From NCBI GenBank assembly GCA_964580765.1, contig CAZOKW010000004.1, forward strand, positions 1-41,739: a DNA stretch of 41,739 bases, read 5' to 3'. Below the pieces are notes generated by a model. It ran no database searches. It was not told the DNA's origin and saw nothing but the letters and a program-made list of their open reading frames with translations. The position numbers were made by a program, and so were the translations under genes. Shown here piece after piece: positions 1,605 through 36,429 of the stretch. How positions within the stretch are numbered: position 1 is the stretch's first letter; each line of letters begins with the position of its first letter. This stretch comes from an uncultured Candidatus Saccharibacteria bacterium (GTDB taxonomy: Bacteria; Patescibacteriota; Minisyncoccia; 2-02-FULL-40-12; IGHO2-12-FULL-4).

Positions 1605-2456
1605 ATGATTGATTTCAAAAATCTCAAAAAGCCGTATTTAATAGCCGAAATCGGCATTAACCATAATGGCGATTTGGAGATTGCCAAAAAACTGATAGAT
1701 GCGGCTCATGCTTGTTCTTGGGACTGTGTTAAATTCCAAAAAAGGAATCCCGATGTTTGTGTACCTGAAGATCAGAAAAATATTCCAAAGGATACTCCTT
1801 GGGGCAAAATGACTTACTTGGAATACAAAAAAGTTTTAGAATTTGGAAAGAAAGAATACGACTACATAGCCAAATACTGTCATCAAAAGCCAATTGACTG
1901 GACGGCATCGGTTTGGGATCTTGATAGTTTGGATTTTATCAAGAAATACGACGTTCCGTTTATTAAAATTCCTTCCGCTCATCTTACCAATCATAAACTG
2001 CTTAAAGCGTCAGCCCAGACCGGAATTCCGATCGTGGCCTCTACCGGCATGAGCACCCTTAAAGAAATTGATGAAGCCGTCGCTATTCTCAAAAAACATG
2101 CTTCCCAGTTTGTTTTAATGCATTGTAATTCGGCCTATCCGGCTAAGATTGACGAGTTAAACTTAAAGGTTATTCCCGCGCTTCAAAAAAGATACAAATG
2201 CCTAGTTGGTTATAGCGGCCATGAATTTGGTTTGACCACTACTACCGCCGCTATGGTTTTGGGAGCTAAAATAGTGGAAAGACACATTACCCTTGACCAC
2301 ACTATGTGGGGAACAGATCAGTCGGCTAGTATTGAACCTAGTGGTATGGATAAGTTTCATAAACAGGTGAGCGAGATGACCCGTTCTCTTGGTGACGGCA
2401 AAAAAAGGGTTTACGAGACCGAAATGGCTGTCAGAAAAAAATTAAGGGGCGCTTAA
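1605..2456 (+). CDS. neuB: N-acetylneuraminate synthase (NeuB) family protein, no C-terminal SAF/AFL domain
   Basis: IAEIGINHNGD, CVKFQKR, KIPSA, STGMS, LMHCNSAYP, GYSGHE, VERHITLD, GTDQSAS; 283 aa. Confidence 0.9.
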   Translation: MIDFKNLKKPYLIAEIGINHNGDLEIAKKLIDAAHACSWDCVKFQKRNPDVCVPEDQKNIPKDTPWGKMTYLEYKKVLEFGKKEYDYIAKYCHQKPIDWTASVWDLDSLDFIKKYDVPFIKIPSAHLTNHKLLKASAQTGIPIVASTGMSTLKEIDEAVAILKKHASQFVLMHCNSAYPAKIDELNLKVIPALQKRYKCLVGYSGHEFGLTTTTAAMVLGAKIVERHITLDHTMWGTDQSASIEPSGMDKFHKQVSEMTRSLGDGKKRVYETEMAVRKKLRGA

Positions 2457-2468
2457 ATACTATGGGAA

Positions 2469-2780
2469 GCGAGCTTGGTGAATATTGCTTTTTCCGGACG
2501 CAAGTTTGCTTCCAGCGAGCAAACTCGCTCATTGCGGTCTGTGGATTCGGAAAGAATTAAAGTAAAAGTCTTTACTTTAATGAACCTTGATTAATTCTTT
2601 CCGTCCAGCTCGTCACTTTTTCATCTTATTCGAAAACGAATGGGCTGAAAAAGTGACTCGCGAGCAATCTACCATCAGAATACCCCAAAGGGGTAAAATA
2701 GTAGATGAGATGCAGACAAGTTTTACTTGTCTGTCCCCACAGCCCACAGAGCCTTCAAAAGCAATATTCACCAAGCTCGC
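2469..2780. repeat. Branched structured element, family I copy A (putative ncRNA or ssDNA mobile element)
   Basis: Perfect 24-bp terminal inverted repeat GCGAGCTTGGTGAATATTGCTTTT (2469-2492/2757-2780) enclosing several hairpins; shares CCAGCGAG, CTGTGGATTCGGAAAGA and CATCTTAT..ATGGGCTG with copy B. Confidence 0.8.
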
Positions 2781-2790
2781 GGCCATACTT

Positions 2791-2819
2791 TTGACAAATC
2801 ATGTTTTTTTCTTTATCGT
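2791..2819 (+). promoter_or_regulatory. Putative sigma70 promoter of SDR-epimerase pair
   Basis: TTGACA-17 bp-TATCGT; AGGAG SD before ATG 2858. Confidence 0.5.
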
Positions 2820-2857
2820 ATTAGACAATCAGTTGTTCCTTAAAATAAGGAGAAGAA

Positions 2858-3691
2858 ATGAGTGTTTTAGACAAGTTCCGACTGGATGGAAAAGTTTGCG
2901 TCATTACCGGCGGGGCCGGATTATTGGGTATTCAGCATGCCGAGGCGATTCTCGATGCCGGCGGTAGGGTGGTCCTGATTGATATCAATGAAGCAAAATT
3001 GGCTTCGGCGGTGTTAAGTCTGTCCGCCAAATTGACAGGCCGGGCTAATAGAATTTGCGGATATCCTTTTGATATCACTGATGAGGAAGCGGTTCTTTCT
3101 GGTGTGGCTCGAATATCGAGAAACTTCGGTTCAATAGATATCCTTATTAATAATGCCGCCAACGACCCAAAACTGGAAGACGGTGGTAAAAATCTGACCC
3201 GTTTGGAAAATTTTCCAATGCAAGTTTGGCAGGACGACTTTAATGTGGGTGTAACCGGTGCATTTTTAATGAGCCGGGAAATCGGCCAAAGAATGGCTAA
3301 AAACGGCAGAGGAGTAATTCTGAATATCGCTTCTGATTTGGCAGTGGTTGCTCCGGACCAGAGAATCTATCGACAAGAAGGACTTGCCGAAAATGAACAG
3401 CCGGTCAAACCGGTGAGTTATTCCGTGACCAAGCATGCTTTGATCGGGCTGACCAGATATTTGGCTACTTACTGGGCCAACAAAGGAGTGCGGGTTAACT
3501 CTATTTCTCCTGGCGGGGTTTCTAACCATCAGCCGGAGGAATTTGTAGCCAAGCTGACGAATTTAATTCCCATGGGGCGGATGGCCGAAGTTGATGAATA
3601 TAAGGCGGCCGTTTTATTTCTTTGTTCAGACGCCTCGTCTTATATGACCGGCGAGAATTTGATTATTAATGGAGGGCGGACATGTTGGTAG
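2858..3691 (+). CDS. SDR-family oxidoreductase (resembles PtmA-type SDRs of nonulosonate loci)
   Basis: TGGAGLLG, NNAA, YSVTK catalytic motif, VRVNSISPGG. Confidence 0.85.
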   Translation: MSVLDKFRLDGKVCVITGGAGLLGIQHAEAILDAGGRVVLIDINEAKLASAVLSLSAKLTGRANRICGYPFDITDEEAVLSGVARISRNFGSIDILINNAANDPKLEDGGKNLTRLENFPMQVWQDDFNVGVTGAFLMSREIGQRMAKNGRGVILNIASDLAVVAPDQRIYRQEGLAENEQPVKPVSYSVTKHALIGLTRYLATYWANKGVRVNSISPGGVSNHQPEEFVAKLTNLIPMGRMAEVDEYKAAVLFLCSDASSYMTGENLIINGGRTCW

Positions 3692-4536
3692 AAAACAAAA
3701 AACATTCCATTGGGGTGATGCAGGGCCGGCTGACTCCTCCCAAAGGCAGGGGAATCCAGTTTTTTCCTTTTGGGGAATGGGAGGAGGAGTTTGAAAAAGC
3801 GGCGGAACTTGGTTTGGACGAGATTGAATTTATTTTTGACCTGGAGCGCTACGAAGAAAATCCCTTGTGGACTGACAATGGTGTTTTCAAGATTAACGAC
3901 CTTAAAAATTGTTTTGAGGTACGCATAGACCATGTCTGCGCGGATTTTTTTATGAGGCGGCCATTTTTTAGGGTCAAAGAAAAAATCAGGCAGGAAAATG
4001 TTGAAATTTTAAAAAAGATTTTATTTCATGCCCACGCCATCGGCGCTAAAGATATTGAGATACCACTTTTAGACCATTCTTCTGTAAATAACGCCGAAGA
4101 AATGGATTTGTTGTGTAGATCCATTTGCGAATGCTTGCCGGTTGCTCAATATCTTGGTTTGTCTATTTCTTTGGAAACTGACTTGCCACCGAGAAGATTC
4201 CGGCAGTTACTGCAAAGATTTCCTAAACATTTGATTGGAGCGGTCTATGATAGCGGGAATAGTTCAGGACTGGGCTATGATCCTTTCCAAGAGGTTACTG
4301 TTTTGAACAAGTTTATTAAGAATATCCACATCAAAGACAGAGTTTTAGACGGGGATACCGTTCCTCTGGGAACCGGTTCAGCCGACTTTGGTCAGTTGTT
4401 TAGAGGATTACAAAAAATTGGTTATCAAGGAGGTTTTACCCTTCAGGCGGCCAGAGGGGAAGAGGGGAAAGAATCCAAAAACATCCAAGAACAACTAGTT
4501 TTTTTGAAAAGATTAATATCGGGCTACTTGACCTAG
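3682..4536 (+). CDS. Sugar-phosphate isomerase/epimerase (xylose isomerase-like TIM barrel; hexulose/ribulose-phosphate 3-epimerase-like)
   Basis: IGVMQGRL N-terminus, SLETD, YDSGN, HIKD, VPLGTG metal-binding motifs. Confidence 0.8.
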   Translation: MLVENKKHSIGVMQGRLTPPKGRGIQFFPFGEWEEEFEKAAELGLDEIEFIFDLERYEENPLWTDNGVFKINDLKNCFEVRIDHVCADFFMRRPFFRVKEKIRQENVEILKKILFHAHAIGAKDIEIPLLDHSSVNNAEEMDLLCRSICECLPVAQYLGLSISLETDLPPRRFRQLLQRFPKHLIGAVYDSGNSSGLGYDPFQEVTVLNKFIKNIHIKDRVLDGDTVPLGTGSADFGQLFRGLQKIGYQGGFTLQAARGEEGKESKNIQEQLVFLKRLISGYLT

Positions 4537-4561
4537 CCAGCGACATAACGCTGGTTTTTTT
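4537..4561 (+). terminator. Intrinsic terminator
   Basis: CCAGCG-acataa-CGCTGG + T7. Confidence 0.75.
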
Positions 4562-4658
4562 ATTTAAAAATATAAGTGGAAACAAGTCAATATTGATTTT
4601 ATCTTGTCTTTTGCTTTGATTAGGCAGACGATCTTTTAAATTCCAAAGGAGTTTTGCG

Positions 4659-5540
4659 ATGGTGAAAATAGGTGATAAAACCGTTGGTCATGACCAGCCG
4701 GTTTTTGTTACGGCGGAAATAGGCATTAACCATAACGGAGACATGGCCGTAGCAAAAAAACTCATTGATCTGGCGGTTTTGGCCGGCTGTGACGCCGTCA
4801 AATTCCAAAAAAGAACAGTCGAGGTGGTTTATACGCCTGAAGAGTTGGCTAAGCCAAGGGAAAATCCCTTTGGTCCGACTAATGGGGATTTAAAGCGGGG
4901 ACTAGAATTTGGTCGAGAGCAGTACGAGGAAATATCCTACTATTGTTGTCAAAAGGAGATACTTTGGTTTGCTTCTCCATGGGACGAAGAAAGTGTTGAT
5001 TTTCTGGAGGAGTATAATCCGCCTTGCTATAAAATTGCCTCGGCTTCCCTGACTGATGATGGACTCTTGCGCCACATCCGGAGCAAGGGCCGGCCGATTA
5101 TTCTTTCTACTGGGATGAGTGACATGGCGATGATCCGGCATGCGGTGGCGGTGCTGGGACATGTTGATCTTGTTTTACTTCATTGCACCAGCGTTTATCC
5201 AAAAGTCGGCTTGGACTCAACCAATAACCTAAGTTTTGTTAATTTAAAAGTAATAGATGAATTGGGCCACCGTTTTCCTTCCGTGCCGATTGGTTTTTCC
5301 TCTCATTTTAGCGGAATTATGCCGGTCTATGCGGCGGTGGCCAGAGGTGCTTGCATGGTGGAATTTCATATCACTCTGGAACGGTCCATGTGGGGCAGTG
5401 ACCAGGCCAGTTCTCTGGAGTTTCAGGAGTTCAATGATTTATGCCGGATGATCCGCGAACTGAAAATCGCCGAAGGCGACGGGATCAAAAGAATTTATCC
5501 CGAAGAAGAAGCGGTCATGAAAAAGTTACGCAGGAAGTAG
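4659..5540 (+). CDS. neuB: Second NeuB-family synthase, no SAF/AFL domain
   Basis: AEIGINHNGD, AVKFQKR, YKIASAS, LSTGMS, LHCTSVYP, GSDQASS; AAGGAG SD. Confidence 0.9.
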   Translation: MVKIGDKTVGHDQPVFVTAEIGINHNGDMAVAKKLIDLAVLAGCDAVKFQKRTVEVVYTPEELAKPRENPFGPTNGDLKRGLEFGREQYEEISYYCCQKEILWFASPWDEESVDFLEEYNPPCYKIASASLTDDGLLRHIRSKGRPIILSTGMSDMAMIRHAVAVLGHVDLVLLHCTSVYPKVGLDSTNNLSFVNLKVIDELGHRFPSVPIGFSSHFSGIMPVYAAVARGACMVEFHITLERSMWGSDQASSLEFQEFNDLCRMIRELKIAEGDGIKRIYPEEEAVMKKLRRK

Positions 5541-5549
5541 TCAGATTAC

Positions 5550-5575
5550 CAGGGTTTACAAACCCTGTTTTTTTT
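5550..5575 (+). terminator. Intrinsic terminator
   Basis: CAGGGTTT-ac-AAACCCTG + T8. Confidence 0.8.
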
Positions 5576-5603
5576 GGTATTTTATATCAAATTATATCTG
5601 TTC

Positions 5604-5824
5604 GGCTTGATGCATAAGCGTTCCTTCAGGTCGTTCCGCCGCTTTCCAGCGAGCGGCTCCACTCGCGATGAAGCTGTGGATTCGGAAAGAGTCAAAGAAA
5701 TATTATACTCTTTCCGACCCAGGAACTGCCTTTTCCATCTTATGCTTAGCATGGGCTGGAAAAGGCAGTTCCTAAGCAATCCACAACTTCAGAGCGTCCT
5801 TCAGGGATGCATATGCATCAAGCC
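5604..5824. repeat. Branched structured element, family I copy B
   Basis: Closing arms GGCTTGATGCATA/TATGCATCAAGCC; GCCGCT-ttccagcg-AGCGGC hairpin; TCGGAAAGAGT/ACTCTTTCCGA; perfect 17-bp AGGAACTGCCTTTTCCA/TGGAAAAGGCAGTTCCT. Confidence 0.8.
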
Positions 5825-5843
5825 CCCATGATTAAATTTGCAA

Positions 5844-6007
5844 GCAGACTAAAGATATTGTTGCCTCAGAGGCGCTGTGGACTGTGTGATTGCATGGTTT
5901 GGACGAAGTATAATTTTTTCACTTCGGACAAAATCCACAGGCCACGGCGAGCGTAGCGAATCGCTGGTGAGCAAGCGTCCGAAGAGGCAATAGTATCTTT
6001 GGTCTGC
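5844..6007. repeat. Branched structured element, family I copy C (inverted relative to A/B)
   Basis: 24-bp closing stem (5844-5867/5984-6007, three G-T wobbles); reverse complement reads TCGGACGC..CCAGCGA..CTCGC..CTGTGGATT..CCACAG like A. Confidence 0.7.
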
Positions 6008-6056
6008 CGTAGAAAGGTTTTAAATAAAATGCCAACATACTTAACTAAATAAGTCT

Positions 6057-6803
6057 ATGAAAATCTATGTCATCATTCCCGCCCGGAGCAACTCCAAGGC
6101 GGTGGTCTCCAAGAACATAAAAATGCTCAAAGGTTTTCCTTTGCTGGCTTATTCTATCGCCGTTTCCAAACTGATTAAAAAGGTCTCCCGGGTGATTGTC
6201 TCTACTAACTCTCCGGAGATTGCCGAGCTGGCCAAAAGATACGGGGCGGAGGCGCCATTTTTGAGACCGGCCCAATTTTGTAAGGACTCCTCAAATGATT
6301 TGGACGCCATCGGGCATGCCTTAAGATGGCTGGAAGAAAATGAAGGCCAAGTTCCCGATTTGGCCGTTTATTTAAGACCATCTACTCCTTTAAGAGATTC
6401 TCGCCTGATAGACAAAGCCATTGCCAGTTTAGTTAAAAATCCCAAAGCCACCTCTTTACGCTCGGCCCACATTTTAGCGGAACCGCCTCATAAAATGTTC
6501 CAACTCAACAAAGCCGGTTTTTTTACGGGATTTTTTCCTAATTACCCAAAGCCGGAGTATCATGGTATCCCCCGTCAGCTTTTTCCCCAGGCCTACCACC
6601 CCAATGGCTATGTTGATATTGTCAGAAGCGATTTTATAAAAGCCAGCCAATATAAACTTTGCTTTGGGGAGAAGATACTGCCTCTGATTACTCCTATTGT
6701 GACGGAGATAGATTTGCCGGAGGATTTTGAGTATCTGGAGTATCAGATCAACAAGTTTGGCAGTCCGCTTCTTGATTTTTTAAAGGCCAATTTTAAAACA
6801 TAA
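6057..6803 (+). CDS. neuA: CMP-nonulosonate synthetase / acylneuraminate cytidylyltransferase
   Basis: IPARSNSK..KNI, VSTNS, PFLRP, LRPSTPLR, PRQ, PNGYVD, EID. Confidence 0.9.
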   Translation: MKIYVIIPARSNSKAVVSKNIKMLKGFPLLAYSIAVSKLIKKVSRVIVSTNSPEIAELAKRYGAEAPFLRPAQFCKDSSNDLDAIGHALRWLEENEGQVPDLAVYLRPSTPLRDSRLIDKAIASLVKNPKATSLRSAHILAEPPHKMFQLNKAGFFTGFFPNYPKPEYHGIPRQLFPQAYHPNGYVDIVRSDFIKASQYKLCFGEKILPLITPIVTEIDLPEDFEYLEYQINKFGSPLLDFLKANFKT

Positions 6804-6804
6804 A

Positions 6805-8196
6805 ATGTCTAACTATCAATTTTTCTTAAAACCAAAAAAAGTTTCGCCAGTGCAAACAAGATTCAGGAAGATAGGAACAAAAATTCCATCGCCGGAGACC
6901 GTAAAAATAATTCACGAAGCCGAAAAATATGGTTTGGATTTGATGTCCGGCCAGTTGCCGGTGGCTTGGGATAAGGCGATTGATTTTAATGTTTTCGATA
7001 AATCGGGCAATAAGTGGATTGACTTTACCTCCGGTATTTTTCTGGCCAATGCCGGGCATGCTAATCCCCAAATTAAAAAAGCTATCGATAGTCAGTTAAA
7101 AGCCGATCTTCTTCACGCCTATAACTATCCGACAGAAATAAAAACCCGCTTCCTGAAGAAACTTATTTCCCTGTCTCCAAAGTCGTGCCACAAAGCGCTT
7201 TTATTCGCTACTGGGGCTGAAACCACAGAGGCCTCTATTTTGATGATGCGAACGCATGGTCAATTAAAAAACAAAAACAAGATTGGCATCATTTCTTTTC
7301 GGGGTAGCATGCATGGCGCGACCATGGGAGCGCGGATGCTTCAGGGCAACCAAAAAATCTTGGATATTTATGGTTTCTCTGATCCAAACATTTTTCATCT
7401 GCCTTTCCCTTATCCTTGGGAAGCAAAGAGCAAAAATTTTGACTGGACGGCCAGATTTAAAAATGATCTGAAAGAGTTAGAAAAAAGGGGAATGAAGGTC
7501 AAGAATCTTTGCGGTTTTATGGTTGAGTCCTTCCAGGGATGGGGGGCGTTGTTTTATCCCCAGACCTATATTAAAGAGCTGGCGAAGTTTGCGGAAAAAA
7601 ACAAAATACTGCTGGCTTTTGATGAGATCCAAAGCGGCTGTGGCCGGACGGGCAAAATGTTTGCTTTTGAGCATTATGGAGTTACTCCCGATCTGATTTG
7701 TCTGGGCAAGGGTTTAAGCAGTAGTTTGCCCCTTTCAGCCGTGGTTAGCCGGGGGGAGATTATTGATTTGGCCGAGGTGGCTGATTGTGCACACAGTACT
7801 CATTCCGGTAATCCGTTGTCTTGCGCCGCTGGTTTGGCCAACCTGGAGGAGTTGCAGTCGAAAAACTTAATCAAAGAATCGGAAAGAAAGGGTAAGATTC
7901 TTTTGGCTGGATTAAATGAGCTGAAAAATAAATTTCCAGATAGAATTTCTTACGTTTTTGGAAAAGGCCTGCTGGCGGCTGTTTTATTTAAAGACCCAAA
8001 AACCGGAGAACCGGAGGGTGAATTTCCCAGCCGGGTTTGCGAACGGGCTATGCAGAAAGGATTGCTTCTGGTTCATACCGGCCGCGAATCAATCAAAATC
8101 GCTCCACCGCTGACTATACCTAATGATGCTCTTAAAGAAGGAGTTAAAGTTTTGGAAGAGTCAATTTTTGAAATTGAACAAGAAACCGGCAAATAA
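6805..8196 (+). CDS. Class-III PLP aminotransferase (paralog of 142-1509)
   Basis: DFTSG, DEIQSGCGRTG, PDLICLGKGLS, THSGNP; same N-terminal extension (V.T..R.I.TK.P.PE) as first copy. Confidence 0.9.
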   Translation: MSNYQFFLKPKKVSPVQTRFRKIGTKIPSPETVKIIHEAEKYGLDLMSGQLPVAWDKAIDFNVFDKSGNKWIDFTSGIFLANAGHANPQIKKAIDSQLKADLLHAYNYPTEIKTRFLKKLISLSPKSCHKALLFATGAETTEASILMMRTHGQLKNKNKIGIISFRGSMHGATMGARMLQGNQKILDIYGFSDPNIFHLPFPYPWEAKSKNFDWTARFKNDLKELEKRGMKVKNLCGFMVESFQGWGALFYPQTYIKELAKFAEKNKILLAFDEIQSGCGRTGKMFAFEHYGVTPDLICLGKGLSSSLPLSAVVSRGEIIDLAEVADCAHSTHSGNPLSCAAGLANLEELQSKNLIKESERKGKILLAGLNELKNKFPDRISYVFGKGLLAAVLFKDPKTGEPEGEFPSRVCERAMQKGLLLVHTGRESIKIAPPLTIPNDALKEGVKVLEESIFEIEQETGK

Positions 8197-8198
8197 TA

Positions 8199-9296
8199 AT
8201 GAAAAAATCTCTTTACCTGTTGATGTTATTATGGTTGGCTGGACTTATTGTTTGGCTGGCTGTAGTGCGGACCGGATTGACGACCGAAACGGCTATCACT
8301 AAAAATATTTGGTGGACCGGACTTCTCCTTTTTGGGGCGGCCATCACTGGTTTCCTCTTTCAGCCAATGTTAAAAACACACTTCCCTTCTCTGAAAGATT
8401 CGCGTGTGGCCGTTGATCCAAGGTTTCTTCTTAAAGACCACGAAATACTGATGGGCTACTATCCGGTGGTGGCGCTGGTATTGTTTTTAGGCGGGCTGGC
8501 TATTTCGCGCCCTCTTTATGGGGCAAATATCCTTTTTGAAATAAAAAGCTGGCATTTTTGGTGGGCTACCGTGGCCACGGGCATACTAAATGTTTTCATT
8601 TTTTATTTTCTTACCAAAGGATTTCGATACGGCGATTTGTCTTTGGTATCAGTAACGCAGGCCATGAGTCCGCTTTTTGTTTTGCCGATCTCCTTAGCGG
8701 TGTTTGCGTGGCTTGGCGGTAAAATCCCGATGGCGAACCCAGCAGTTAGCCCGGCAGGATTTTTTGGGATTTTAATCACCATAGCGGCATTGGCGCTCAA
8801 TATTTCTATCGGTAAAAAAATACCCGTCACCACCTCTTCGCCAGAAGGAGATTGGTTTGCCAGTCGTCCGGTCATTTCCGGACTTTTGGGTACATTTATC
8901 GGAAGCGTGGCCGTGAATTTTGATAAAGTCGCCATTGACTCGGCCAACCCGTTTCTGATGGGTATATTCATGGCGTTAATAGTGAGTGTTATTACAGCCG
9001 TTTGGACATATGCTAAGGGCGGATGGGGAAGGATTATTTTTATTGCCAAAAAATACGTCAGATCATTTTTGCTGGTGGGTCTTGTCTACGGTCTAGTGGT
9101 TCTGATAATGAACGTCACTTTATATGGTGCCAATGTGAATTATTACGCAACCGTTAAAAGAACTTCAGCCATTTTTGGTATTTTTTACGGCATCTATGTG
9201 TTGAAGGAAGGAGTGAATAAAAAAGACCGTCTAGTGCGTGTGGCGGTGGGAGTACTCGTTATTTTTGGCATTCTGTTGATCACGCTAAAGGGTTAA
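8199..9296 (+). CDS. EamA/DMT-superfamily transporter
   Basis: Many hydrophobic helices; GDLSLV...SPLF, FDK.AI, VKRTS.IFG....LKE are DMT repeat-type motifs. Confidence 0.7.
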   Translation: MKKSLYLLMLLWLAGLIVWLAVVRTGLTTETAITKNIWWTGLLLFGAAITGFLFQPMLKTHFPSLKDSRVAVDPRFLLKDHEILMGYYPVVALVLFLGGLAISRPLYGANILFEIKSWHFWWATVATGILNVFIFYFLTKGFRYGDLSLVSVTQAMSPLFVLPISLAVFAWLGGKIPMANPAVSPAGFFGILITIAALALNISIGKKIPVTTSSPEGDWFASRPVISGLLGTFIGSVAVNFDKVAIDSANPFLMGIFMALIVSVITAVWTYAKGGWGRIIFIAKKYVRSFLLVGLVYGLVVLIMNVTLYGANVNYYATVKRTSAIFGIFYGIYVLKEGVNKKDRLVRVAVGVLVIFGILLITLKG

Positions 9297-14532: not shown

Positions 14533-16126
14533 TTATGGCGGCTACTTCAAATTTAGACTGCAAATTGTTTTCAATATAAAGATAAATTTCGTTTGTTTTG
14601 TCTTCTCTTAAACCGCTTAAGGCGTTTAGGTTTGGGTAGTCAATGAGCTGATAGGCCGTATTAACTTTGGCCAGATTGGCCAGCAAATTTTCCTGGTACT
14701 TTTCGCCAAAGAGTTTTTGGCCGGAATACAAAAATATGTCATTATTTTGGCCCATGAACGGTTTATAGTCGACCAGTCGCGCTATGGTGGGATAGGCCCC
14801 CAAAACAAGGACCGGATCCTTGGTTTTTATCAAGGTTTTTAATTTATCCGCCACCCTTTCCGGGAAGGAGACCACTTCTTGACTTCCCCGGTCAATTATG
14901 TGGATTTTAATCTCTTTTTTAGCAAAGTCAATCGCCTGGGGGAGGAGGAATATGGCTATAAAAAGACCTGCCCACCAATTTCTTAAGTATTTCTGGAGTC
15001 CGATATTGTTCAGGACAAGAATTAATATAAAAAAGTATAAAGTAAAAAAGGGCGCCTCATGGCTTTTTGCTCCCGAACCAGTGGTGAGGACCGTGGCTAC
15101 GGCCATGAATCCAACCAGCCAGACAAAAAGAACTATTTTTTTGTTTTGCTGGTAAAAAAATCGGAGCTTTGAACCGATGGCTTGGGCCGAATCCGAAAAA
15201 AAGAAAACAGCCATGCTGGCGGCGGATAGGAGGTAGGTTGTCCAATATAGCGGCAAAAATATATTTCTAATGGCGGGCAGTCCCCAGTATAAGGTGGTAA
15301 TGAATTTTTTAGTTATTCTTAACGGCTCGGCTTTATAAATGATGGGGGGTATTTCTATCAGCCATTTTTTTAACAATGAGAGATAGCCAACACCGGGTAC
15401 ATAAAAAATCCACAGAGCCAAAACAGCGAACAGGCCAAACCCGGCCAGCCAAGCCACTACCACTTGGAAACGGGGTTTCCAAGTGGTAGTGGCTAAAGTG
15501 GCGGCCTGCCCTAGCCGTTTTTTATAAAGCCAATAAATAACGAATCCCCCGATGATTAGGGGAACGGCTATGTGGACTTGCCGTCCAATAAAAGCCGTTG
15601 CCCATAAAATTCCCGAGAAGACGGAATAGAGTATGATTTTTTTGGAAGAAAGCCGGATTCGATCGGCGATGATTACGGAAAATAAAAGAAATAAGCTGAT
15701 CAGTTCAAGCGTGTGATAAAAAAGCGGAACGGCAATATCCCGGCCTGGGTCAAATTGTCTGGAAGAAATGGAAACAAAAACTAAAAGCACTGCCAGCCAA
15801 GATTTTGGTAGTGAGCGGGTTAGGGAAAAGGAGATAAAATAAAGAGCTAAGCAGTAAAAGGAGTAAACAGAAAAAAGCATAAAAAACCGATTGGTAAAAT
15901 CGCTGAACCCCATTTTATAAATGGGCGAAAATAGTAAGGGGAATAAAGGTGTGCGATAATCAAAAAAGTCGATCAAAAACTTTCCTCCTCTGGAGATGAG
16001 AGCAGAGAGGTCCATATAAAAAGAATTATCAGTGCCGATAGGCAAGGTTTTGTCAAAATAAAAAACCACGCCAATAATAAACAAAATCAGACCGGGCCAG
16101 ATAACATGGGAATACCATTTCTTCAT
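14483..16126 (-). CDS. Multi-pass membrane protein, probable GT-C fold (ArnT/PMT-like) glycosyltransferase
   Basis: First TM followed by D..FY...G....DFFD..TP loop typical of GT-C; many TM helices and a C-terminal soluble domain; co-transcribed with GtrB-like GT2. Confidence 0.6.
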   Translation of the reverse strand: MKKWYSHVIWPGLILFIIGVVFYFDKTLPIGTDNSFYMDLSALISRGGKFLIDFFDYRTPLFPLLFSPIYKMGFSDFTNRFFMLFSVYSFYCLALYFISFSLTRSLPKSWLAVLLVFVSISSRQFDPGRDIAVPLFYHTLELISLFLLFSVIIADRIRLSSKKIILYSVFSGILWATAFIGRQVHIAVPLIIGGFVIYWLYKKRLGQAATLATTTWKPRFQVVVAWLAGFGLFAVLALWIFYVPGVGYLSLLKKWLIEIPPIIYKAEPLRITKKFITTLYWGLPAIRNIFLPLYWTTYLLSAASMAVFFFSDSAQAIGSKLRFFYQQNKKIVLFVWLVGFMAVATVLTTGSGAKSHEAPFFTLYFFILILVLNNIGLQKYLRNWWAGLFIAIFLLPQAIDFAKKEIKIHIIDRGSQEVVSFPERVADKLKTLIKTKDPVLVLGAYPTIARLVDYKPFMGQNNDIFLYSGQKLFGEKYQENLLANLAKVNTAYQLIDYPNLNALSGLREDKTNEIYLYIENNLQSKFEVAAIIEQDEFKRVTIYRRKK

Positions 16127-16166
16127 TTTGTCTATTATCTAACAAAATTTGAGTTTAGTCACCTTG

Positions 16167-16229
16167 ACCCCACACATAACTAGTGGTATTTTAAAAGTCC
16201 GAAGTGTTTTCTCTAGTTATGTGTGGGGT
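16167..16229. repeat. 17-bp perfect inverted repeat in a divergent promoter region
   Basis: ACCCCACACATAACTAG (16167-16183) / CTAGTTATGTGTGGGGT (16213-16229), 29-bp spacer. Confidence 0.85.
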
Positions 16230-28857: not shown

Positions 28858-30224
28858 GGTTTGAAAACTATCTCGTTTTTTTCCAAAACAACAGTAATTT
28901 TTTTATGGCCGGTTAATTGGCCGGTGGTGAGCAGGTTTCCTATTGGATCGACCAGATATTTTTTAAAACAATCTTGGAGTGATTTAACCTGCTCTTCTGG
29001 TTTTTTGGCTGTTTCTTCTAAAATAAAATCTTTCACCGGCTGGCTTATCTCCAGTGCCAGAGGGACTTTGGCTAGAAATAAAGTCAATTCTTCTATTTGA
29101 ATTTCCAGGATATCTTTAAAATTCTGTGGAGAAAGAATGTTAAATGTAACAATTCCATCCAAGCGATTAAGGAATTCTTGGCTGAAAAGTTTTTTCAATT
29201 CTTTTTTGACCAATTTCTCTAAACTGATTTTGTTGGAGGCAAAACCGATTCCGGCCACGCCCTTGGTAGCTTTGCTGATCAGTTTACTGCCGATGTTGGA
29301 GGTCAGAATAATGTAGGAATGGCTTAAGTCCACCTCGTCTCCGTTTCCCAAGACGGCTTGACCTTCTTCCATCAAATGCAATAGGAACTGCCGGACTGTT
29401 TCATGGGCTTTTTCAATTTCATCAAAAATTATAATGAGGATTGGCTCTTCTTTGGGGTTCACTTCAGCCGACCGGCGTATTTCTGCTTTTTTTGAGGCCG
29501 GTTTGGTTGGTGGAGTGGGGTTAGCTATTTCGGAGTTTTTCAGCAGTTGTAAAGCGGTTTCGGTAAAAGAGACAGTCAGCAGATTGCGAAGCGTTTGAAG
29601 AATTACCCTTTGTTCTTTTAAGTTTTCTTTTTTTTCAAATAACTCCATGCCGCTTATTTTTGAGTTTTTTAAGTTGGAAAAATGCCGGTCAATGTTTTTC
29701 AGTGCCTGTTCGATCAAAGCCAGTTTATCGAGGTCGGTGGAAAAAAGATCAACTTTTTCCACCAACTCCCCCTCTCTTTTTTCCATTTTGTTACTTTCGG
29801 AACTCTCGATTGACGGCTTGGTCTGGTAGCCTGGGATTTTGGCATAGAGTTTTTCTTTGGAAAGAATCGGCTTTTCGCCATAACCGATATAACCCGGAGG
29901 AGCGCCGATTAATTTGGCGATTTCATGCCTCTCTTGGTAGCTGACGCAATCAATTAGAGTAACGGCTTTTTTGGTACCGTGGAATTTTTTAGCTAAAATA
30001 CGGCCAGCCTCGGTTTTACCGGTCCGGGAAGGACCTAAAAAAAGGAATACCCCGATTGGTCTCTTTTTGTCCTCATCGTTAAGTTTTTTTACGCCGCTTT
30101 GGAAAGAAGCATAGGCCTGGGCTAAAACTTTAATGGCCTGCGGTTGGCCTTTAATATATCTGCCTAAAAATTCCTCCAGTTCCTGCATGGCTGGAGGTTT
30201 GAGGTTTGGATTTAAAGATGTCAT
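28854..30224 (-). CDS. Stand-alone Clp/Hsp100 D2-type AAA+ ATPase with large internal insertion
   Basis: IKGQ..A, RPIG.FLFLGPSRTGKTE (Walker A), KLIGAPPGYIGY pore loop, FDEIEKAH (Walker B), ILTSN, EFLNRLD. Confidence 0.8.
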   Translation of the reverse strand: MTSLNPNLKPPAMQELEEFLGRYIKGQPQAIKVLAQAYASFQSGVKKLNDEDKKRPIGVFLFLGPSRTGKTEAGRILAKKFHGTKKAVTLIDCVSYQERHEIAKLIGAPPGYIGYGEKPILSKEKLYAKIPGYQTKPSIESSESNKMEKREGELVEKVDLFSTDLDKLALIEQALKNIDRHFSNLKNSKISGMELFEKKENLKEQRVILQTLRNLLTVSFTETALQLLKNSEIANPTPPTKPASKKAEIRRSAEVNPKEEPILIIIFDEIEKAHETVRQFLLHLMEEGQAVLGNGDEVDLSHSYIILTSNIGSKLISKATKGVAGIGFASNKISLEKLVKKELKKLFSQEFLNRLDGIVTFNILSPQNFKDILEIQIEELTLFLAKVPLALEISQPVKDFILEETAKKPEEQVKSLQDCFKKYLVDPIGNLLTTGQLTGHKKITVVLEKNEIVFKP

Positions 30225-30355
30225 CGTTTCCCCCAGTTTTTTAAGGTTCCAATTTAATTTTATCCTAGCAACTAACGTCCGTTTTGTCTACAAACAGAAA
30301 GCCCCAATGGGGCGAAATAAAGGAGATGAGATGCCGTTAGCAAACGGCGCTATCA

Positions 30356-32751: not shown

Positions 32752-33671
32752 ATAGCACGCGCGTGGTCGTAACCGGGGGAGCCGGATTTATCGGTTCACA
32801 TTTGACCGACAAACTAGTGGCTAGAGGATATGATGTGCTAGTGATTGACAACATGTCTTTAGGAAAAAAGTGCAATCTTAATTCAAAAGCCAATTTTTAC
32901 CAGGAAGACATCAGGAATCTCAAAGAGCTGAGATGGATTTTCTGGGGAGTGGATTATGTTTTTCATTGTGCGGCCATGCCGCGCATTCAGCCGTCCATTA
33001 AAAATCCGGACGAATCCTTCACCAATAACTTACTGGGAACACATAATGTGCTAATGGCGGCCAAAGAGGCGGGAGTGAAAAGAGTGATTTACTCCGGTTC
33101 TTCTTCGGTTTATGGCGATCAGCCGGAATTACCTTTGTGTGAAAACATGACTCCCAGACCGAAAAACCCTTATGCCTATGACAAGTGGCAAGCAGAAGAA
33201 CGATGTTTAATGTTTTGGAAGTTATTTCAGATGCCAGTGGTGTGTTTGCGTTACTTCAATGTTTTTGGAGAGCGGCAGTCAACAGAGGGGGCTTATGCCA
33301 CGGTGGTGGGAATTTTCCTTCGTCAAAAAGAAAGAGGCGAACCGTTGACCATTGTCGGAGATGGCAAACAACGGCGCGACTTTACTTATGTGGCGGATGT
33401 GGTGGAAGCTAACATTAGTGCCATGGAATCTGCCGAGGCTGTAGGGCAGGTCATTAATATCGGCACCGGCGCGAATTACTCCGTCAATGAATTGGCTGAC
33501 TTAGTTGATTATTTAGGGGGTAAGATGGTAGGTAAGAAACATTTGCCGTCCCGTCCTGGTGAGGCCCAAGAAACTTTGGCCGATATTTCCAAAGCGCAGA
33601 GATTGCTTAATTTCAAACCGACCATCTCTTTGAAGGATTGGATTAAATTGGGCGGGAAAACGGCCGGCTAG
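32748..33671 (+). CDS. NAD-dependent nucleotide-sugar epimerase/dehydratase
   Basis: TGGAGFIGSH, SSSVYG, YAYDK, LRYFNVFG, GDG.Q.RDF. Confidence 0.9.
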   Translation: MNSTRVVVTGGAGFIGSHLTDKLVARGYDVLVIDNMSLGKKCNLNSKANFYQEDIRNLKELRWIFWGVDYVFHCAAMPRIQPSIKNPDESFTNNLLGTHNVLMAAKEAGVKRVIYSGSSSVYGDQPELPLCENMTPRPKNPYAYDKWQAEERCLMFWKLFQMPVVCLRYFNVFGERQSTEGAYATVVGIFLRQKERGEPLTIVGDGKQRRDFTYVADVVEANISAMESAEAVGQVINIGTGANYSVNELADLVDYLGGKMVGKKHLPSRPGEAQETLADISKAQRLLNFKPTISLKDWIKLGGKTAG

Positions 33672-35621: not shown

Positions 35622-35722
35622 AACTTTAAAAATAGATTGGAGGCGGAGGGGAACACTTTTTTTGAGCACCGTCGAATAAAAAAGTATGTTCACCGGAGCA
35701 TCCCAAATCTATTTTTAAAGTT
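35622..35722. repeat. Hairpin element family II, copy 1
   Basis: 66-bp core 35638-35703 identical to 36358-36423; outer arms AACTTTAAAAATAGATT/AATCTATTTTTAAAGTT. Confidence 0.9.
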
Positions 35723-36010: not shown

Positions 36011-36349
36011 ATGAAATATATTCTACAGTCCACGAATACAACCATTTCCGACAGTATCCAGGCTCTGATTGACAGTAAAATTAAAGCCCTGGAACATTTT
36101 ATTTCCCGTTTTGATCCGGAAACGGTTGAAGCCAGAATTGAAGTCGGTAAGCCCTCCCGGCATCACCAGACGGGTCTGGTTTTCTATGCCGAGATCAACT
36201 TAAAAATACCCGGTAAACTTTTACGGGCAGAAGCCACTCATTTGGATTTGTTGTCGGCGGTCAACGAGGCCTTCAAAGAAGTTGAGAGGCAGGTTAAAGA
36301 TTATAAGGAGAAGATGATTACAAAAAATAAACCTCGGAAACAAATATAA
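36011..36349 (+). CDS. raiA: Ribosome hibernation promoting factor / ribosome-associated inhibitor A
   Basis: K...L..F, AEINL.IPG..LRAE, D...A.......ERQ...YK; adjacent to secA. Confidence 0.85.
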   Translation: MKYILQSTNTTISDSIQALIDSKIKALEHFISRFDPETVEARIEVGKPSRHHQTGLVFYAEINLKIPGKLLRAEATHLDLLSAVNEAFKEVERQVKDYKEKMITKNKPRKQI

Positions 36350-36352
36350 AAC

Positions 36353-36429
36353 TGGACTGGAGGCGGAGGGGAACACTTTTTTTGAGCACCGTCGAATAAA
36401 AAAGTATGTTCACCGGAGCATCCAGTCCA
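36353..36429. repeat. Hairpin element family II, copy 2
   Basis: Identical 66-bp core; outer arms TGGACTGGA/TCCAGTCCA. Confidence 0.9.

Follow-up and report, generated by a model that had tools for sequence, protein, structure and literature searches.

A lineage-restricted family of structured, probably mobile repeats with a conserved folded centre and copy-specific outer stems in the spacers of a small bacterial genome

The Correia elements (CREE/NEMIS) of Neisseria are small gene-spacer repeats that are co-transcribed and whose paired ends are cut by RNase III; these ends are conserved 26-bp inverted repeats, and the elements have a TA target duplication. The BOX, RUP and SPRITE repeats are those of Streptococcus pneumoniae, where BOX elements are modular (with optional or repeated sub-units), strongly folding and intergenic, have neither a copy-specific closing stem nor a three-way junction core, and have, to our knowledge, no known enzyme. 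In streamlined CPR genomes of about 0.7 Mb, structured repeats amounting to about 1% of the DNA are unexpected, least of all in ribosomal-protein operons. A REPIN is a pair of REP units in inverted orientation whose arm sequence is conserved, and it flanks its RAYT gene (PMC3337134, PMC3116915).

The family examined here shares the foldback, multi-copy, intergenic and non-autonomous character of REP/REPIN, Correia/NEMIS and BOX elements, and differs from them in the features that define them: its arms and termini vary, RAYT-like genes neither lie beside it nor track it across genomes, and no target duplication was visible. It resembles REP, BIME and REPIN repeats in being multi-copy, non-coding, intergenic, hairpin-forming, non-autonomous and persistent in one lineage, and its genome resembles those of REP-RAYT hosts in carrying RAYT-like genes with REP-like hairpins of their own. 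Unlike REPINs, the family has variable arms around a conserved centre in a multi-helix junction of 200–310 nt, its copies are not found flanking RAYT-like genes, and element and gene do not go together across genomes. Like a Correia element it is a small spacer repeat with paired ends, whereas its ends differ in every copy and no duplication was seen; like BOX it is modular, strongly folding and intergenic, whereas its sequence modules are different and it has a copy-specific closing stem and a three-way junction core. The accessible part of the literature on repeats of CPR, Patescibacteria and Parcubacteria yielded no description of such elements. The family looks like kin of the REP/REPIN/MITE kind and like mobile DNA of an undescribed type, and we consider it probable that it is a selfish, non-autonomous, lineage-restricted family of mobile structured repeats.

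The window is a whole contig of 41.7 kb from a 687-kb genome (G000; 30 contigs, 97.7% complete). A preliminary description of the window had joined two spacer segments, A and B, as copies of one family with compensatory changes between them. Their parts, and those of a neighbouring relative, are as follows.

2469–2780, plus strand: copy A, whole element, subtype 1, long form
2469–2492 with 2757–2780: perfect 24-bp outer stem of A
2539–2555, plus strand: core 17-mer of A, CTGTGGATTCGGAAAGA
2612–2657, plus strand: P4 of A, apex CATCTTAT-TCG-aaaa-CGA-ATGGGCTG
2667–2706 and 2713–2733, plus strand: two extra hairpins of A, ahead of the P2 3' strand; B has neither
5550–5575, plus strand: terminator-like hairpin and T-run outside the element (hairpin with T8 at 5550–5567), after ORF 4659–5540
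5604–5824, plus strand: copy B, whole element, subtype 2 (nhmmer, 158 bits)
5604–5615, plus strand: P1 5' arm of B, GGCTTGATGCAT, partner strand 5813–5824
5638–5657, plus strand: hairpin Pa of B, a variable 6-bp stem that covaries among copies, with the conserved loop T-TCCAGCG
5665–5795, plus strand: central domain of B, match to covariance model R1 (135.6 bits)
5665–5682 with 5778–5795, 5683–5716 and 5721–5773: closing helix, P3 and P4 of the central domain of B
5674–5690, plus strand: core 17-mer of B, CTGTGGATTCGGAAAGA, forming the P2 5' strand and the start of P3
5721–5773, plus strand: P4 of B, a copy-specific lower stem with the conserved apex CATCTTAT-GC-tta-GC-ATGGGCTG and tandem T.G pairs
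5813–5824, plus strand: P1 3' arm of B, ATGCATCAAGCC
5844–6007, minus strand: reduced relative of the family, inverted, 20 nt past B and without P4
5844–5867 with 5984–6007: 24-nt outer stem of the reduced relative

The 17-mer proved to be exact in both copies, as had been described; with up to 2 mismatches allowed it matched the window only at these 2 places, against a chance expectation of 0.01, and none of 100 shuffles reached 2 matches. BLAST aligned A with B over 27 bases only. The arm that follows the 17-mer differs between the copies and is self-complementary in each, with AGGAACTGCCTTTTCCA/TGGAAAAGGCAGTTCCT in B (5721–5746/5748–5773) and GTCACTTTTTCA/TGAAAAAGTGAC in A (2612–2632/2637–2657). 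The apex motif CATCTTAT...ATGGGCTG is kept in both (2622–2647 and 5736–5758, its sole occurrences in the window; chance expectation 0) under different caps, ATTCG-aaaa-CGAAT in A and ATGC-tta-GCAT in B. The outer stem of B pairs 5604–5615 with 5813–5824, in full agreement with the coordinates first proposed for it, and the strength of the fold against dinucleotide shuffles was z = -13.4 for B and z = -15.5 for A.

The architecture of the family was drawn from an alignment of 20 copies of this genome and from the folding of 49 copies of several genomes. Each element is non-coding, 200–310 bp in size, and makes one self-contained fold, which in B comprises the outer stem P1, the hairpin Pa, and a three-way junction that is closed by the helix P2 and bears P3 and P4. 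P1 is copy-specific, 10–32 bp long, and closes the element. Inside it lies a sub-terminal conserved segment, CTTTTTCCGGACGC...GCCTYCAAAAG in subtype 1 (as in A) and CCTTCAGGTCGTTC...GCGTCCTTCAGG in subtype 2 (as in B), followed by Pa with a variable stem and the conserved loop TCCWGCG. P2 pairs CTGTGGATT with AATCCACAG, with a covarying extension, and leads into the three-way junction; P3 is formed by CGGAAAGAGT...ACTCTTTCCG or by shorter variants that also pair, and may have a further hairpin inserted in it; P4 has a copy-specific lower stem below a conserved apex. Loops, junction strands and the P4 apex are thus near-invariant, and the stems of P1, Pa and lower P4 are variable yet paired. 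This reverses the usual layout of small mobile DNA, the centre being conserved and the ends free to vary, and we know of no transposition mechanism that predicts such an arrangement.

We examined the pairing with covariance model R1, which describes the central three-way junction (133 positions, 47 pairs) and was built from 19 copies. The model found both copies, A with 87.5 bits and B with 135.6 bits, and the structural alignment supported the conclusion that the arms of A and B occupy homologous positions of one architecture and are not independent palindromes. The compensatory change claimed between A and B was borne out: among the 47 pairs of the structure-guided alignment, 27 were identical, 1 was changed on one side, 13 were changed on both sides with pairing kept, and 5 were unpaired in A and 1 in B. 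The misses of A and 3 of the 13 double changes fall in the closing helix, where the extra hairpins displace its true 3' strand, so that about ten of the double changes (those in P4, plus one in P3) are robust. Across the family, 96.2% of the cells of the model-guided alignment (48 matches, 41 distinct) were paired compared to 81.2% in shuffles, 29 of the 47 pairs showed double changes among the 41 distinct copies, and the covariation score was 0.375 compared to 0.130 for shuffled alignments (0 of 500 reached 0.375) and 0.03–0.08 when the partners were slid by 1–3 columns, all in an alignment that was fitted to the model and is thus biased toward structure. RNAalifold run on a plain MAFFT alignment found 24 of 41 pairs with double changes, and the outer stems of 49 copies held 958 Watson-Crick pairs against 78 mismatches. 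What follows from this compensatory change is that a folded single strand matters, or else the copying of arm to arm in DNA; it is no proof of an RNA gene.

The ORFs flanking the two copies (1605–2456 and 4659–5540) are both of the NeuB family, and B begins 64 nt past the stop codon of the second, within an 85-aa ORF (5574–5831) that spans the whole element. It is nonetheless extremely improbable that B is a cis-acting terminator or attenuator of that NeuB-family gene, or a small protein gene. B lies downstream of a separate terminator-like site at 5550–5567, just as the preliminary description had it, and there is none at the end of B; the 3' flanks of the copies have no T-run, and one copy occupies the rplB–rpsS spacer, where termination would be harmful. 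The overlapping ORF has no Pfam family, and the changes between copies are dominated by those that preserve pairing rather than reading frame. Searches of the whole window against Rfam gave no match at gathering thresholds, and permissive E-values over 2400–6100 gave chance-level microRNA and snoRNA matches only (best microRNA 20–22 bits against thresholds of at least 48); ARAGORN found no tRNA or tmRNA in 2300–6200, and a consensus scan found no promoter in A or B.

The last two hairpins of A (2667–2706 and 2713–2733) are missing from B, and the modularity that had been read from this extends to the family, in which optional hairpins are gained and lost and the P4 arm is swapped for unrelated modules in some copies. 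A hairpin pair resembling the extra two of A is present in the copy at G000:C22:2799. The copies at G000:C8:17542-17748 and C26:1081-1296 have a double-hairpin module in the place of P4, and the same module lies inside reduced inverted members (e.g., C13 ~8100 and C10 ~16000), which indicates that hairpin modules are exchanged between subfamilies. Arm subfamilies (e.g., GTCCCCAYTGC) recur across loci and genomes. A 24-nt stretch of the first extra hairpin of A (2690–2713) has 75–79% matches at 30311–30334 and 33517–33540 of the window, which could be further modules or could be chance.

The reduced relative beyond B is the other family of the preliminary description; it was matched by nhmmer at 5995–5898 (minus strand) and by R1 at 5873–5949 (minus strand, E 6.2e-5). 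The same arrangement, in which an inverted reduced copy comes after a full one, also occurs at G000:C1 (~29040-29430), C13 (~8030-8460) and C10 (~15660-16180).

Within the 687-kb genome the 17-mer was found 13 times exactly and 9 times with 1–3 mismatches, and a reversed control pattern 0 times. The nhmmer search gave 49 merged loci with a total length of 8,161 bases (1.19% of the genome), and 20 of the loci scored at least 100 bits; the R1 search gave 42 distinct loci from 50 rows, the short ones without P4. The family thus comprises 20 strong and about 20 reduced copies in this genome. Among 105 genomes of the order the element was present in 8: in 6 of the other 8 genomes of the window's own family, in 1 of 26 genomes of a second family, and in 0 of 8 and 0 of 62 genomes of two more. 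Positive genomes of the window's family had 12–23 matches each, and the single positive outside it had 4. The exact 17-mer occurred at 94 loci of public genome and viral contigs, 10 of which carry the element; those with visible titles were labelled as Candidatus Yanofskybacteria, as an unclassified bacterium and, in one case, as a 'Saccharibacteria' MAG. The other 80 of 90 genome-contig matches had no similarity beyond the 17-mer region and are chance matches. A viral origin was rejected, the 4 viral-contig matches likewise being chance, with no similarity beyond the 17-mer region. In three DNA runs of one study, public contigs ended inside the repeats and depth rose there, and no empty-site form was seen in those runs; a practical consequence is that the repeats break assemblies, public contigs ending inside them.

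Presence and absence at orthologous sites, as in a classical MITE, were seen as two exact empty junctions and four shortened spacers when G000 was compared to a congener, G001 (75.8% identical over 243 kb of long alignments; 74% complete). The 250-bp copy at G000:C10:5637-5886 lies between the genes identified by Pfam as rplB and rpsS and is co-oriented with both; in G001 this site is empty, the flanks meeting at one point. Of 80 metagenome rpsS loci none had a family match, and in seven of the closest, which were inspected, there was no element-sized insert upstream of rpsS. The second exact empty site is G000:C12:2286-2533 compared to G001 C29:2013, and at four further G000 element sites the G001 spacer is only 30–132 nt long. 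At any single site a precise deletion in G001, instead of an insertion in G000, is possible. One spacer holds different family members in different orientations in the two genomes, and truncated 5' halves remain at C14:8288-8360 and C19:7721-7783.

At syntenic sites the unit occurs either complete with its outer stem or not at all. Neither arm is found at the empty sites, and unrelated loci share arm subfamilies, so the outer stem travels with the element; these same observations ruled out that the arms are copied from the target. Neither a target-site duplication nor a conserved target motif was visible at any of the 20 copies; the boundaries of the empty sites are uncertain by about 3 nt, the comparison genome being at 76% identity. 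Terminal inverted repeats are not conserved, the arms being copy-specific, and only the sub-terminal CTTTT/AAAAG of subtype 1 is shared. The elements settle in short spacers, 3–21 nt past the upstream stop codon and often 5–55 nt before the next start, even in a ribosomal-protein operon. No pair among the 20 copies exceeded 85% identity (median 63%), and thus nothing shows recent movement in G000.

Modules are swapped and copies decay, and the core changes less than the adjoining genes. In the syntenic pair G000 C2:19955-20176 / G001 C10:7991-8179, the conserved blocks are ~95% identical and the adjacent coding DNA ~76–80% identical, both outer arms have diverged, and unrelated sequence stands in the place of P4. 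At another orthologous site the arms are kept with a double change from T-A to C-G, and the interior is lost in G000. In the closest pair within G000 (C10:5709 and C10:15735), the conserved blocks match exactly over ~80 nt, the stems of Pa and P4 show several differences, and the P1 arms are wholly different. Plain drift with compensation fits this contrast of identical centre and unrelated arms poorly; it suggests strong constraint on the centre, or its homogenisation. The stems would then stay paired either because a folded single strand is under selection or because the arms of a quasi-palindrome correct one another through template switching. If the family is mobile, a putative enzyme may recognise the conserved folded centre and not the ends, and in copies that are co-transcribed, as most would be, the fold could serve as a compact insert that spares the flanking cistrons.

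We examined if an enzyme encoded in the genome could account for such movement. Four Y1_Tnp matches above the Pfam cut-off were found in G000, in open frames of 218–236 aa that are RAYT-like, one of them reaching 52 bits with the NCBIfam REP-associated tyrosine transposase model, under its cut-off of 80. These four genes, elements that are hairpins placed after gene ends, and the orientation bias that single-strand transposition predicts would all suit a REPIN-type element moved by one of these RAYT-like (Y1 HUH) transposases acting on folded single-stranded DNA. We nevertheless regard that explanation as quite improbable, in that each RAYT-like gene has its own, different small hairpin, and no family sequence was found within 500 nt of any of the four genes by nhmmer with relaxed thresholds or by blastn-short. 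Nor do gene and element co-occur: Y1_Tnp is found in 53 of the 105 genomes of the order, compared to the 8 with the element; the element-bearing G002 (97% complete) and G001 (74% complete) had no Y1_Tnp match at E <= 1e-5; and, conversely, the element-free G003 had 4 Y1_Tnp matches. The flanks of the Y1_Tnp genes are unrelated to the family, as examined for IS200/IS605-derived PATEs or TnpB guide RNAs, and TnpB (PF07282) had no match in G000. No transposase linked to the family was found.

The RAYT-like genes themselves (L238, L239, L240 and G000:C14:16687-17352) are each flanked on both sides by their own short hairpin. That of the C22 gene has 16 copies in the genome (at up to 2 mismatches), which makes it a classical REP-like family separate from the element.

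Two further candidates were rejected. An autonomous copy, with an ORF between the halves, was absent from G000, isolated halves being truncated remnants; and the only RVT_1 match is part of a diversity-generating retroelement, unrelated to the elements, so that a link to reverse transcriptase was dropped. That retroelement, on G000:C13 (L241:1-1904), has its variable repeat at the contig start, a template repeat ~500 nt downstream, with most of the differences between the two at A positions, and, at 885–1904, a gene for a reverse transcriptase of 339 aa.

The remaining explanation is an RNA that the host uses, in which the element would be transcribed with its operon and released at P1 by RNase III in the manner of rRNA processing stems, giving a stable product of ~170 nt with a three-way junction that would be protein-binding or would act as a processing or stability module between cistrons. 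Core conservation, orientation bias and the near-invariant tandem U.G/U.G, which count against mobile repeats, would also fit a host-selected RNA. The variable stems with fixed loops and junctions are the usual signature of a functional RNA, the motif strand seems by eye to be rich in A where it is unpaired, and the tandem U.G/U.G that it forms in the P4 apex occurs in 39 and 36 of 41 copies. In the orthologous pair the core outdoes the adjoining genes in conservation, old syntenic copies keep their pairing, and a copy is tolerated in the rplB–rpsS spacer. The genome encodes an RNase III, for which the P1 duplex of 12–32 bp may be a substrate, and cleavage of P1 in transcripts would be feasible. 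Most copies lie in the direction of the flanking genes (by our own ORF calls, 17 co-oriented and 5 anti in G000, and 8 and 4, with 2 unclear, in G001, i.e., ~3:1), a bias that by our arithmetic has a two-sided p of ~0.01 with copies that are not independent.

Set against this, roughly one copy in four runs antisense to its genes, and congeners differ by the gain, loss, truncation and exchange of copies, with many sites empty in relatives. The opposite strand also has its claims. Folded as RNA and as DNA, both strands of B gave similar folds (z between -11 and -13), and in 38 of 49 copies the opposite strand was the more stable. Isolated transition mismatches on the motif strand favour wobble on the opposite strand, with 60 A.C compared to 17 G.T, and fourfold-site skews do not account for this asymmetry; two recurrent closing-helix sites contribute 14 of the 60 A.C, and the majority of the others lie close to the inner end of P1, in a hot spot that is common to orthologues. 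The A.C excess and the opposite-strand stability thus point to one strand, and the tandem U.G and the orientation bias to the other. We consider it unlikely that the family is used by the host as an operon-borne RNA. The fuller form of this proposal, a multi-copy structured RNA of a CPR lineage that comes from operon spacers, is released at P1, binds a factor by its core and spreads via its folded centre, seems to us similarly doubtful; the factor, host- or element-encoded, would be bound by the core with its tandem G.U pairs and fixed loops. The mobile structured repeat remains the reading that we favour, and either outcome would be informative, the one giving a mobilisation system that reads structure and the other a new class of RNA.

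An A.C mismatch occurs at the same place of P1 in both members of the pair C2:19955 / C10:7991, ~5 nt outside CTTTT, where the opposite strand has G.U, and it recurs there in many copies with otherwise different arms. The opposite strand of the P3 loop reads TATAAT, with no conserved -35 box seen. The window also holds two direct repeats of 82 nt (35622–35703 and 36342–36423; 94% identical); the spacer after a methionine aminopeptidase-like gene is filled in G001 by sequence similar to these repeats, and the corresponding G000 spacer has a copy of the family in its place.
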